The translations under genes and the position numbers were made by a program. From contig CAXHJY010001525.1 of the NCBI GenBank assembly GCA_964016885.1, positions 1-57,838 of the forward strand: a stretch of DNA of 57,838 nt. The letters are read 5' to 3'. This document shows, piece after piece, positions 1-48,110 of the stretch; the first letter of the stretch is position 1, and each line of letters begins with the position of its first letter. Source of the stretch: Eledone cirrhosa. Taxonomy: Eukaryota. Below the pieces are notes generated by a model. That model did not search any database. It saw nothing but the letters and a program-made list of their open reading frames with translations, and was not told where the DNA came from.

Positions 1-1769
1 TATGTGAATATAGACATAGAATATTCAAAAATATTCTGTATGTTTATAATAAACATTTTGAAGACCTAATCGCTATAGAATAGAATACGTCACGTATTAC
101 AATTAGATTCTCGATAAAAGCAAGGGAAGTAATCTACGCGTTTCATTCTTGTTAGAAATCATCAGGACCACATATCCAGTGCTTTTATCGAGAATGACAC
201 AGCTAGAGACTTATAGAATACTTAGCTGTGTACAGGAACTGGTTTGAAAGAGCGGTTGCCGGTCCGGCAGAAATTAGAAATTGGAATAAATGCTCTGAAA
301 TAGCGATATATATGTGAATATAGACATAGAATATTCAAAAATATTCTGTATGTTTATAATAAACATTTTGAAGACCTAATCGCTATAGAATAGAATACGT
401 CACGTATTACAATTAGATTCTCGATAAAAGCAAGGGAAGTAATCTACGCGTTTCATTCTTGTTAGAAATCATCAGGACCACATATCCAGTGCTTTTATCG
501 AGAATGACACAGCTAGAGACTTATAGAATACTTAGCTGTGTACAGGAACTGGTTTGAAAGAGCGGTTGCCGGTCCGGCAGAAATTAGAAATTGGAATAAA
601 TGCTCTGAAATAGCGATATATATGTGAATATAGACATAGAATATTCAAAAATATTCTGTATGTTTATAATAAACATTTTGAAGACCTAATCGCTATAGAA
701 TAGAATACGTCACGTATTACAATTAGATTCTCGATAAAAGCAAGGGAAGTAATCTACGCGTTTCATTCTTGTTAGAAATCATCAGGACCACATATCCAGT
801 GCTTTTATCGAGAATGACACAGCTAGAGACTTATAGAATACTTAGCTGTGTACAGGAACTGGTTTGAAAGAGCGGTTGCCGGTCCGGCAGAAATTAGAAA
901 TTGGAATAAATGCTCTGAAATAGCGATATATATGTGAATATAGACATAGAATATTCAAAAATATTCTGTATGTTTATAATAAACATTTTGAAGACCTAAT
1001 CGCTATAGAATAGAATACGTCACGTATTACAATTAGATTCTCGATAAAAGCAAGGGAAGTAATCTACGCGTTTCATTCTTGTTAGAAATCATCAGGACCA
1101 CATATCCAGTGCTTTTATCGAGAATGACACAGCTAGAGACTTATAGAATACTTAGCTGTGTACAGGAACTGGTTTGAAAGAGCGGTTGCCGGTCCGGCAG
1201 AAATTAGAAATTGGAATAAATGCTCTGAAATAGCGATATATATGTGAATATAGACATAGAATATTCAAAAATATTCTGTATGTTTATAATAAACATTTTG
1301 AAGACCTAATCGCTATAGAATGAAACGCGTAGATTACTTCCCTTGCTTTTATCGAGAATCTAATTGTAATACGTGACGTATTCTATTCTATAGCGATTAG
1401 GTCTTCAAAATGTTTATTATAAACATACAGAATATTTTTGAATATTCTATGTCTATATTCACATATATATCGCTATTTCAGAGCATTTATTCCAATTTCT
1501 AATTTCTGCCGGACCGGCAACCGCTCTTTCAAACCAGTTCCTGTACACAGCTAAGTATTCTATAAGTCTCTAGCTGTGTCATTCTCGATAAAAGCACTGG
1601 ATATGTGGTCCTGATGATTTCTAACAAGAATGAAACGCGTAGATTACTTCCCTTGCTTTTATCGAGAATCTAATTGTAATACGTGACGTATTCTATTCTA
1701 TAGCGATTAGGTCTTCAAAATGTTTATTATAAACATACAGAATATTTTTGAATATTCTATGTCTATATT
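1..1769. mobile_element. 310-bp tandem repeat array with one hammerhead ribozyme per unit (non-LTR retrozyme-like); internal inversion at ~1321
   Basis: Units start at 1, 311, 621, 931 and 1241 and look identical by eye. From 1321 the same sequence runs reverse-complemented to 1769, then (AT)n. HHRs lie on the minus strand at 129-171, 439-481, 749-791, 1059-1101 and on the plus strand at 1605-1647. Confidence 0.9.
1605..1647 (+). ncRNA. Type I minimal hammerhead ribozyme (310-bp family, representative copy)
   Basis: Helix I GTGGTC/GATTAC (two G-U pairs); core CTGATGA at 1611-1617; helix II TTCT-AACA-AGAA; GAAA at 1632-1635; palindromic helix III ACGCGT; GUA cleavage triplet ending at 1641. 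Enclosed by a perfect 16-bp inverted repeat at 1581-1596/1654-1669. Confidence 0.88.
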
Positions 1770-4255
1770 TATATATATATATATACATATATATACATAT
1801 ATACATATATACACATATATACATATATACACATATATACATATACATATATATATATATATACATATATACATATACATATATATATATATACATATAT
1901 ATACATATATACATATATACACATATATACATATACATATATATATATATATACATATATACATATACATATATATATACATATATATATATACATATAT
2001 ATATACATATATATATACATATATATATATATACATATATATATATATACATATATATATATATACATATATATACATATATATATACATATATATATAT
2101 ATACATATATATACATATATATATACATATATATATACATATATATATATATACATATATATATACATATATATATATATATACATATATATATATACAT
2201 ATACATATATACATATACATATATATATATACATATATATATATACATATATATATACATATATATATATACATATATATATATACATATATATATATAC
2301 ATATATATATATACATATATATATATATACATATATATATACATATATATATACATATATATATATATACATATATACATATATATATATATACATATAT
2401 ACATATATACATATATATATATATACATATATATATATATACATATATATATATATACATATATATATATATACATATATATATATATACATATATATAT
2501 ATATACATATATATACATATATATATATACATATATATATATATACATATATATATATATAATACATATATATACATATATATATATACATATATATATA
2601 TATACATATATATATATACATATATATATATACATATATATATATACATATATATATATATACATATATATATATATACATATATATATATATACATATA
2701 CATATATATACATATACATATATATACATATATATATATACATATATATATATATATATATATATACATATATATACATATATATACATATACATATATA
2801 TACATATATATACATATATATATATACATATATATATATATACATATATATATATATATACATATACATATACATATACATATACATATATATACATATA
2901 TATATATATACATATACATATACATATATATACATATATATACATATATATACATATATATATATATATATACATATATATATATATATATACATATATA
3001 TATACATATATATATATACATATATATACATATATATATATATATATATATACATACATATACATATATATATACATATATATATATATACATACATATA
3101 CATATATATATACATATATATATATATATACATACATATACATATATATATACATATATATATATATATATATACATATACATATATATATATATATACA
3201 TATACATATATATATATATATACATATACATATATATATATATATACATATACATATATATATATACATATACATATATATATATACATATATATATATA
3301 TATACATATACATATATATATACATATACATATATACATACATATACATATATACATATATATACATATACATATATATATATACATATACATATATATA
3401 TATATATATACACATATACATATATATATATACATATATATATACATATATATATACATATATATATATACATATATATATATACATATATATATATACA
3501 TATATATATATACATATATATATATACATATATATATATATACATATATATATATACATATATATATATACATATATATATATACATATATATATATACA
3601 TATATATATATACATATATATATATACATATATATATATACATATATATATATACATATATATATATACATATATATATATATATACATATATATATATA
3701 CATATATATATATACATATATATATATACATATATATATATACATATATATATATACATATATATATATACATATATACATATATATATATACATATATA
3801 TATATATACATATATATATACATATATATATATACATATATATATACATATATATATATACATATATATATATATATATATATATATATATACATATATA
3901 TATATATATATACATATATATATATATATATACATATATATATATATATACATATATATATACATATATATACATATATACATATATATATATATATATA
4001 TATACATATATATACATATATATATATATATATACATATATACATATATATATATACATATATATATATACATATATATATATACATATATATATATATA
4101 CATATATATATATACATATATATATATATACACATATATACATATATATATACAGATATATATATATATATATACATATATATTGACACATATATATAGA
4201 GACATATATATATATATATATAGATATATATATATAGACACATATATATATATAG
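1770..4255. repeat. Compound (AT)n microsatellite, C-interrupted (ATAC)
   Basis: Direct inspection. Confidence 0.97.
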
Positions 4256-4583
4256 AGAGATAGAGAGACCGAGAGAGAGGGAGAGACGGGGGATGGGTAT
4301 AGACAGACACAAAATTCGCGCCGGAAATGTACTGGAAAGATTCGTTTCAAGAAAAGCATAAGACACAGAAAAGAAGGAAGATTTTTGGATAACCATCAAT
4401 GCACGGGGATGAAATGATGATGAAGGGAGGTGGCAGAATGAAACAGAGAGATAGGGGAGATAGAGAGAGAAAGAAAGAGTTAAACTGAGAGAGAGATGGA
4501 GGGAGTGGGAATAAGTGGAGAGATTTAAACGAAGATTGGAAAAATAAAGCAACCGAGAGTGATATAAAAGAGTAAAGTAAATG

Positions 4584-4690
4584 GGAGAGAGAGAGAGAGA
4601 GAGAGAGAGAGAGAGAGAGAGAGAGAGAGAGAGAGAGAGAGAGAAAGAGAGAGAGAGAGAGAGAGAGAGAGAGAAAGAGAGAGAGAGAGG
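4584..4690. repeat. (GA)n microsatellite
   Basis: Direct inspection. Confidence 0.97.
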
Positions 4691-46128: not shown

Positions 46129-46329
46129 GGACAAAATGAAAACACAGATGCACATAGAAAAAACAACCAACCAGTAACATGTAAATAAACAAATAAATAA
46201 ACGAATATAAACACACACAGACACCCGGATGTGGCGCATGCGCAGACTGAGCACACAACACACACACAGAAACATGATGGCGTAGGACAGAACAAAGGAG
46301 AGGCACAAAAACAAAGAAAAGAAACCCCA

Positions 46330-46372
46330 GTCACTGAAGAGGTCACAGAATGTGTGACGAAAGAACTTTGAC
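46330..46372 (+). ncRNA. Minimal hammerhead ribozyme of the Penelope pseudo-LTR
   Basis: GTCA-CTGAAGA-G-GTCACA(GAATG)TGTGAC-GAAA-G(AA)C-T-T-TGAC, in the position expected for Penelope HHRs. Confidence 0.78.
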
Positions 46373-46951
46373 AATATATAAACAACCATCTGGTTGTGGA
46401 ACCAACCAACCAACCGGTAATTTATAAATTCCTAAATTTATAAATTTATTATCATACATTGAAGTGAAAGCAACTGGTGCGTGTGTCTCTTATTGGCAAC
46501 ATGACCCTCCCAAAGTATAACAATATCGGTTTCAACACACGTTTTCAGATAAAGAATCTTGCTAAACAAATTCAGAAACGAAATATATATATACATATAT
46601 ATATACATATATATATATACATATATATACATATATATATACATATATATATATACATATATATATATACATATATATATATACATATATATATATACAT
46701 ATATATATATACATATATATATATACATATATATATATACATATATATATATACATATATATATATATATATACATATATATATATACATATATATATAT
46801 ATATATATGTACATATACATATATATACATATATATATATACATATATATATATATATATATATATATATACATATATATATATACATATATATATATAC
46901 ATATATATATATATATATATATATATACATATATATATATACATATATATA

Positions 46952-48110
46952 TGAATATAGACATAGAATATTCGAAAATATTCTGTATGTTTATAATAAA
47001 CATTTTGAAGACCTAATCGCTATAGAATAGAATACGTCACGTATTACAATTAGATTCTCGATAAAAGCAAGGGAAGTAATCTACGCGTTTCATTCTCGTT
47101 AGAAATCATCAGGACTACATACATATCCAGTGCTTTTATCGAGAATGACACAGCTAGAGACTTATAGAATACTTAGCTGTGTACAGGAACTGGTTTGAAA
47201 GAGCGGTTGCCGGTCCGGCAGAAATTAGAAATTGGAATAAATGCTCTGAAATAGCGATATATATGTGAATATAGACATAGAATATTCGAAAATATTCTGT
47301 ATGTTTATAATAAACATTTTGAAGACCTAATCGCTATAGAATAGAATACGTCACGTATTACAATTAGATTCTCGATAAAAGCAAGGGAAGTAATCTACGC
47401 GTTTCATTCTCGTTAGAAATCATCAGGACTACATATCACATATGTCTATATTCACATATATATCGCTATTTCAGAGCATTTATTCCAATTTCTAATTTCT
47501 GCCGGACCGGCAACCGCTCTTTCAAACCAGTTCCTGTACACAGCTAAGTATTCTATAAGTCTCTAGCTGTGTCATTCTCGATAAAAGCACTGGATATGTA
47601 GTCCTGATGATTTCTAACGAGAATGAAACGCGTAGATTACTTCCCTTGCTTTTATCGAGAATCTAATTGTAATACGTGACGTATTCTATTCTATAGCGAT
47701 TAGGTCTTCAAAATGTTTATTATAAACATACAGAATATTTTCGAATATTCTATGTCTATATTCACATATATATCGCTATTTCAGAGCATTTATTCCAATT
47801 TCTAATTTCTGCCGGACCGGCAACCGCTCTTTCAAACCAGTTCCTGTACACAGCTAAGTATTCTATAAGTCTCTAGCTGTGTCATTCTCGATAAAAGCAC
47901 TGGATATGTAGTCCTGATGATTTCTAACGAGAATGAAACGCGTAGATTACTTCCCTTGCTTTTATCGAGAATCTAATTGTAATACGTGACGTATTCTATT
48001 CTATAGCGATTAGGTCTTCAAAATGTTTATTATAAACATACAGAATATTTTCGAATATTCTATGTCTATATTCACATATATATCGCTATTTCAGAGCATT
48101 TATTCCAATT
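46952..48110. mobile_element. Second 310-bp HHR tandem array with internal inversion at 47437/47441
   Basis: Left arm about 1.6 units (HHRs on minus at 47076-47118 and 47390-47432); right arm about 2.2 units (HHRs on plus at 47598-47640 and 47908-47950). Confidence 0.9.

Follow-up and report, generated by a model that had tools for sequence, protein, structure and literature searches.

The 57,838-nucleotide contig CAXHJY010001525.1 of the octopus Eledone cirrhosa (assembly GCA_964016885.1), analysed here over its full length as a single window, is animal DNA rich in microsatellites, with islands of retroelements separated by long TA tracts; its non-microsatellite (island) part comprises 28,056 bases. 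A 310-bp unit is found at three loci in these 58 kb, as two arrays with inverted arms (A and C) and one fragment (B). Judged by its letters, the unit is a non-coding repeat with a predicted type I hammerhead motif, and we regard it as very probably a retrozyme moved by an enzyme of the Penelope-like element (PLE) type. Our preferred account of the arrays, which we hold to be evenly poised between right and wrong, is that each was written by a Penelope-like reverse transcriptase (RT) that made several laps of a single RNA circle representing the unit. The three loci, with the TA tract that precedes array C, are as follows.

1..1321, minus strand (ribozyme strand minus): array A, left arm; at least 4.26 identical 310-bp units
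1317..1769, plus strand: array A, inverted right arm; 1.46 units with the haplotype of the left arm, outer end at unit position 7 against (TA)n
17288..17484, plus strand: fragment B; lone 5'-truncated copy of about 200 nt, outer end at unit position 5
46596..46951, no strand assigned: TA microsatellite left of array C; C-rich on the plus strand
46952..47437, minus strand: array C, left arm; 1.55 units, outer end at unit position 5
47441..48110, plus strand: array C, inverted right arm; 2.16 units, outer end at unit position 279

The hammerhead unit

The unit has a GC content of 0.33, and the arrays contain no stop-free frame of 120 codons, so that the reading frame with RT and GIY-YIG domains expected of an autonomous PLE is missing from them. 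The hammerhead motif was defined by the core CUGANGA plus GAAA, an NUH cleavage site and helices I–III in type I order, a descriptor that is matched by ten copies across the three loci, compared with one in 5000 shuffles of the unit and none in 50 shuffles of the 28,056 island bases. In the predicted architecture helix I has 6 bp, helix II has 4 bp with a U-U pair at its base, and helix III is a palindrome of 2 bp. The copies lie at the following positions.

129..171, minus strand: type I hammerhead copy 1, array A left arm; predicted cleavage between 135 and 134
439-481, 749-791 and 1059-1101, minus strand: further descriptor matches, array A left arm
1605..1647, plus strand: type I hammerhead, array A inverted arm; descriptor match
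17318-17360, plus strand: hammerhead in fragment B; variable core base altered
47076-47118 and 47390-47432, minus strand: descriptor matches, array C left arm
47598-47640 and 47908-47950, plus strand: descriptor matches, array C inverted arm

The motif scores below the gathering threshold in Rfam (HH9, 17.7 bits versus 52, E=0.47), and an Rfam scan of 46130-48110 lists no hammerhead match; microRNA matches in the Rfam scans, also below gathering, were discarded as hairpin or TA artefacts. Folded as a circle the unit is stable (z = -4.7, with none of 100 shuffles equally stable), and its opposite strand folds about 10 kcal/mol lower than the ribozyme strand. The arrays thus show what is expected of a non-LTR (long terminal repeat) retrozyme, namely tandem units within 150-450 bp, a type I hammerhead in each, at least two of them consecutive, and a dispersed, high-copy family, as seen from the three loci in 58 kb and from the read depth given below.

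Haplotypes within and between arrays

The original prediction held that units are homogeneous within an array, that each array has its own haplotype, and that this is the signature of rolling-circle reverse transcription. The homogeneity is confirmed for array A over both arms (1-1769), in which no substitution relative to unit 1 occurs and the allele tags are present at site 27 in seven of seven copies and at sites 150 and 169 in five of five each. It holds as well for array C (46952-48110), which has no internal substitutions and carries its own alleles in four of four copies at each of unit positions 27, 150 and 169, the positions at which it differs from array A. Within-array divergence is below about 0.13%. 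A 4-nt ACAT duplication, noticed earlier near 47118, does lie at 47117-47124 in the left arm of array C, in one of the four passes over the site, and the fragment at 17288 is indeed a third haplotype, with differences from array A at unit positions 27, 151, 161 and 169. The claim of an own haplotype for every array stands insofar as A, B and C are distinct, but the site-150 allele of C is not private, and B, with less than one unit, is silent on homogeneity.

The ACAT slip (47117-47124) and the inner junction of the left arm of array C (47437-47441) occupy matching positions in successive units, just beyond helix I of the hammerhead; this site may be one at which the polymerase pauses.

The frequency of these alleles in the family at large was gauged from public sequencing runs. 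Twenty listed runs (17 organism labels, 16 studies) hold 53-77% of the sampled words, and four of the 24 listed runs, designated X1, X3, X5 and X21, were compared with one unit. X1 is the one public run with deep coverage, although it may not come from the species of the window, and its contig depth is not an allele frequency. It contains 581 contigs on the unit with a summed depth of at most 626,000, a figure that gives the order of magnitude only, the species match to the window not being established; only four substitutions reach 1% or more, indicating a nearly uniform family of very high copy number. The majority type of X1 agrees with B and C at sites 27 and 169. The alleles of array A are rare there, with a depth of 2,180 out of 462,414 (0.5%) at site 169 and of 0 out of 396,671 at site 27, the latter value being limited by the loss of rare variants from X1 contigs; the site-150 allele of array C, in contrast, accounts for about 25% of the depth. 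The tandem joint of the unit is seen in X1, X3 and X5, the last two of which contain a single circular contig apiece, 340 nt long, of the majority type and with a depth of 10-12. None of the 12.8 million raw reads of X21 matched the unit, a result of no test value. The near-identical unit appears in runs under 17 organism labels, for which cross-contamination in traces from a very high-copy repeat is the likeliest explanation, with close relatives or real (horizontal) transfer as less likely, unproven alternatives; a 25-nt invariant stretch of the unit has no matches in metagenome, viral or prokaryote contigs.

Because alleles rare in X1 fill seven of seven and five of five copies, the units of array A are not independent draws from an X1-like pool: with a 1% ceiling taken for site 27, the chance of such a draw is about 1e-15 for the long arm, and it is excluded. 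It is unlikely that these units are a product of polishing, since polishing would favour the majority haplotype. The short arm of array A holds the rare site-27 allele twice, from which it follows that more than one unit of that haplotype was most likely present at insertion. Alleles shared by the two arms would not count as separate evidence should the short arm have been copied from the long one by snap-back.

Insertion junctions and inverted arms

The microsatellite flanks of B and of C have the same strand polarity on both sides (for C, C/G counts of 23/1 on the left and 28/0 on the right), which implies that the elements lie inside pre-existing tracts and that the inversion, and with it the palindrome, ends at the element. 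The arms are arranged head-to-head, with the RNA 3' ends pointing outwards. Of the four outer ends that are visible, three fall at unit positions 5-7, within 3 nt of one another (simulated P=0.0008), and are adjoined by a TA-like stretch of the unit in which 8 of 10 bases agree with the flank. The fourth, that of the right arm of array C, lies at unit position 279, 36 nt beyond the others, and has the form of a PLE-type tail. The left end of array A is truncated by the window edge within the same TA-like stretch, a coincidence of 4% if random. Loose ends in TA are also found in X1 in the two zones of these outer ends, at unit position 306 (seven contigs) and 275 (one contig), among the six shown of 30 loose ends.

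The inner ends, on the other hand, are dispersed (unit positions 81, 149, 176, 18 and 201). The inner junction of array A is formed by 5 nt of microhomology, AGAAT (1317-1321), and that of array C has 3 extra bases. The loci display the marks of mobilisation by a PLE: an inverted 5' copy (two of the three loci), a 36-nt tail (one of the four visible outer ends) and an AT-rich target. Any target-site duplication would be masked by the flanks, which are themselves TA microsatellite.

Two origins of the inverted arm fit the data. Two-ended priming does so since the uninverted fragment B terminates where the short arms do. Fold-back of the complementary DNA (cDNA) does so because sister families in the window show small inversions with loops of 1-10 nt (9734-9785, 13565-13604 and 32406-32542), and the arm lengths of both arrays permit the short arm to be a snap-back copy of the long one. 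The reverse order, in which the short arm came first and the long arm is its snap-back copy, was rejected, as the short arm lacks the length in both arrays. A further fold-back at the 5' end of a piece of an RTE-type long interspersed nuclear element (LINE; 39542-39577) suggests that host repair may contribute.

How the arrays were written

The observations consist of the hammerhead motif, haplotypes that run through whole arrays, arms set head-to-head, flanks of TA and outer ends that cluster; the remaining steps of the circle account are inferred. Tandem transcripts of the unit would cleave themselves, likely by pairing into double hammerheads via the palindromic helix III, and the monomers would be ligated into 310-nt circles. 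The endonuclease of a PLE would nick a (TA)n tract, and reverse transcription would begin at the TA-like stretch of the circle, or about 36 nt upstream of it, and end at a random phase. The inverted arm would arise from similar priming at the second DNA end or from cDNA folding back on itself, with microhomology closing the inner junction. With one monomer used per event, its allele would be fixed in all units, whereas a slip in one lap would be confined to one unit, as may have happened with the ACAT duplication.

A cleaved linear monomer is excluded as the template, since every arm runs through the predicted cleavage site, which is crossed without a break in 11 of 11 crossings. A single-unit bottleneck in the history of array A is supported, and a circle yields it directly. 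The likely templates of array A are therefore two, a circle and an uncleaved multimer transcribed from a source that was uniform, and the window alone does not separate them. The retrozyme reading in the original prediction is thus upheld, as is the single-unit bottleneck for array A, but "signature" was too strong a word, since the same picture is predicted by the multimer.

A number of points weigh against the circle. The arrays number only two, and array A alone is strong; array C is weak evidence, as its site-150 allele is common in X1, so that homogeneity would arise by chance with a probability of 0.015 if both arms are independent and of about 0.25 for the long arm alone. In a family as uniform as that of X1, much homogeneity is expected in any case. 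The sister insertion at 13557-14243 is not uniform, its two 198-nt repeats differing at three positions and at one more at the fold-back. Clustering of the outer ends could stem in part from later tail loss between the TA-like stretch and the flank. Helix II of the hammerhead appears weak from its sequence, and a comparison covering the one PLE in the window revealed no intact helper whose terminal repeat matches. No strand-change joint is listed among the 581 X1 contigs, a weak negative given that contigs drop rare forms. From other systems, a PLE protein preferred unprocessed RNA in vitro and did not require cleavage (PMC11167929), eight of nine Xenopus retrozymes failed to cleave, poor cleavage being common among retrozymes (10.64898/2026.07.22.740005), and multimeric retrozyme RNAs are present in axolotl tissues (PMC7229834, cited in part throughout).

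These last three findings speak for the alternative that the same element and PLE machinery used as template an uncleaved multimeric transcript of an already uniform source array, copied as is, which we consider possible but clearly short of probable. It predicts everything seen in the window, including the seamless crossings, the fixed start sites and the uniform units, and the site-169 allele of array A, with its depth of 2,180 in X1, is present there in several copies. Yet it requires at least four successive uncleaved ribozymes for the left arm of array A, and it moves the bottleneck one step earlier, leaving the uniformity of the source for two rare alleles unexplained, one of which (site 27) is absent from the X1 contigs, with their noted loss of rare variants. 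Uniformity within arrays is also the standard outcome of concerted evolution, and a short insertion might have been expanded and homogenised later at the DNA level through unequal exchange, slippage or gene conversion, like ordinary satellites; we find this quite unlikely, even though it could account for the length of the left arm of array A. Such a DNA-level route, which has been proposed for retrozyme arrays (10.64898/2026.07.22.740005), is hard to start from less than one unit, while all four arms exceed one unit and share the same alleles in both orientations. Moreover, array C retains its 4-nt slip in a single unit, the low divergence within arrays leaves little time, and the rare allele present twice in the short arm of array A makes it unlikely that growth after insertion explains everything.

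It is very unlikely indeed that the uniformity or the palindromes are an artefact of assembly or library preparation (collapse, polishing or fold-back reads), a view that the missing strand-change joint in X1 would favour. Polishing would lead to the majority haplotype, yet array A has two rare alleles and array C a slip in one unit; fold-back read chimeras were rejected, as the flanks of B and C are not inverted and the inversion is confined to the element. The arms are unequal and the junctions offset, three LINE frames of 454-584 codons are open, the window is without N, four further small fold-backs occur within it (9734-9785, 13565-13604, 32406-32542 and 39542-39577), and the tandem joint is found in three public runs. 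We retain the lap-by-lap copying of one circle as the preferred account. The family is very young, of very high copy number and nearly uniform, and its arrays are short enough for long reads, which makes the reverse transcription of circles testable: rare alleles serve as molecule tags, and the circle, multimer and DNA-level models differ in the patterns that they predict across loci.

An extension of the circle account, which we hold to be unlikely, sees in each array the fossil of one RNA molecule, a 310-nt circle that would have been deaminated as RNA (with A-to-I editing by octopus ADAR included) and copied, lap upon lap, by a dimeric Penelope enzyme working at the two ends of a (TA)n tract that had been cut. 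On the ribozyme strand, six variants from the X1 majority are known: A-to-G twice, C-to-U three times and U-to-A once. Each of the five transitions is of a kind that deamination produces (post hoc sign test: 0.03 one-sided, 0.06 two-sided). The A-to-G of array A is located in a UAG triplet within helix I, a context favoured by ADAR. One C-to-U lies at a CpG, and an origin at the DNA level explains it equally well. If true genome-wide, the deamination bias would indicate that single edited RNA molecules served as templates and that edits were written into the germline as array-wide haplotypes. All six variant sites are structure-neutral, and by the same rule neutrality applies to 207 of 310 transitions and to 435 of 930 substitutions; selection on RNA structure was dropped as evidence, the joint chance being about 0.06 (hand estimate).

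Neighbouring Penelope-like element and other repeats

A decayed PLE is positioned 370 bp to the left of array C.

44250..46580, plus strand: decayed Penelope-like element; RT remnant at 44241-45182, GIY-YIG at 45655-46125
46330-46372, plus strand: type I hammerhead of the decayed PLE, in its 3' region

The closest relative of its RT part is an Octopus vulgaris protein with 72% identity, followed by others at 53-54%, a relationship that on its own makes an octopod the likely host. In Pfam, GIY-YIG scores above the cut-off and RVT_1 below it, and motifs of the Neptune/Nematis type can be recognised by eye in the translation (RT, a CX2-5CxxC cysteine linker, and, at the C terminus, GIY-YIG with CCHH). 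The decayed PLE and the 310-bp unit share no DNA beyond an 11-nt chance match. By its sequence features, this element suggests the kind of helper that would be involved and is a candidate only as the actual one.

Further retrozyme-like sequences are present in the window. A second family (9732-9869 and 40313-40399) has the core and helix II region in common with the 310-bp unit (25 of 28 bases); its copy at 9732 is a small fold-back arranged head-to-head around a loop of 8 nt, and the left end of this copy lies at a motif resembling the end site of the main family. A third family (13557-14243) is inserted in a TA tract and consists of 198-nt direct repeats 466 bp apart, with a canonical type I hammerhead at 13884-13955 (Rfam HH9, E=1.6e-7) and a 14-16 nt fold-back at its 5' end. 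The sequence at 32406-32542 is a near-perfect 137-bp palindrome with 68-nt arms, centred in a hammerhead-like core that falls short of the full descriptor.

Other islands belong to LINEs. Two RTE-type copies (36577-38293 and 38377-39474), 98.6% alike, stand head-to-head with an 84-bp TA spacer between them, and are possibly another two-ended insertion. Young RTE-type copies at 14942-16844, 33247-35574, 55264-57391, 11429-12227 and 39511-40229, with a PHD finger inside the RT frame, all terminate in (TGA)n against TA tracts; in the last of them the 5' end carries a fold-back of 36 nt (39542-39577). A different LINE-like element is represented by two copies of its 3' part (9153-9717 and 20243-21397), 95% alike, in TA tracts.

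Comparison with known systems

Metazoan non-LTR retrozymes are known from coral, mussel and axolotl, and for these reverse transcription on a circle to give tandem cDNA, with PLEs as helpers, has been proposed (PMC7229834); for PLEs themselves, reverse transcription of more than one unit of a circle was proposed in PMC4209133 (likewise cited in part), so that the rolling-circle idea for retrozymes is already in print. The octopus unit resembles the metazoan retrozymes in its tandem 150-450 bp non-coding units with one type I hammerhead per unit, its GC content below 50% and its stable circular fold, and its hammerhead is like that of axolotl HHR_Amex2, with a 2-bp helix III and a U-U at the base of helix II; HHR_Amex2 cleaves better as a dimer (PMC7229834). 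Expression and circles have been demonstrated for the retrozymes of that study, whereas the octopus unit is known here from DNA alone, and the parts of PMC7229834 consulted here, its supplement aside, describe no octopus family, head-to-head arrays, (TA)n targets or array-by-array haplotypes. Among cephalopods, 235 hammerheads have been counted in the giant squid (PMC6962438, in part). Our literature search found no octopus retrozyme and no array-by-array haplotype analysis, the supplements of PMC7229834 and 10.64898/2026.07.22.740005 and one file of PMC4209133, which may bear on novelty, lying outside it; it also found no in vivo demonstration of the lap-after-lap reverse transcription of retrozyme circles, proposed since 2014.

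PLEs that bear an endonuclease include the Neptune, Nematis, Naiad and Hydra clades (PMC8557442, PMC3846280 and PMC11167929, in part). Their described features include a tail, an inverted 5' copy and (TA)n targeting (PMC8557442, PMC3846280), with (TA)n targets listed for two octopus Naiads (PMC8557442), and a purified PLE protein cut and extended both strands, with two internal start sites bounding the tail (PMC11167929). The arrays A and C are like these elements, as far as the cited parts describe them, in their partial tandems, the head-to-head inverted 5'-truncated copy, the optional 30-40 bp tail, the microhomology at the inner junction, the (TA)n target and the hammerhead within the repeat. 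They are unlike them in that the unit encodes no protein and both arms consist of the repeat alone, and the 310-bp unit has no sequence link to the terminal region of the neighbouring PLE.

In twin priming of L1, two cDNA ends are joined head-to-head via a few bases of microhomology. The present arrays differ from this in having more than one unit in each arm, and their arm lengths are equally compatible with the first cDNA having folded back.

The closest parallel in vertebrates comes from Li et al. 2026 (10.64898/2026.07.22.740005), who linked vertebrate retrozymes to PLE terminal repeats and put forward unequal crossover as the source of the arrays. The short tandem arrays (seven units or fewer in most families) and the co-occurrence with PLEs are common to both cases. 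That study, which sampled no mollusc, suggests local unequal crossover, whereas the junctions described here point to arrays made at insertion. As they carry the full anatomy of a PLE insertion, arrays A and C tie retrozymes to PLE enzymes through their junctions, beyond co-occurrence.

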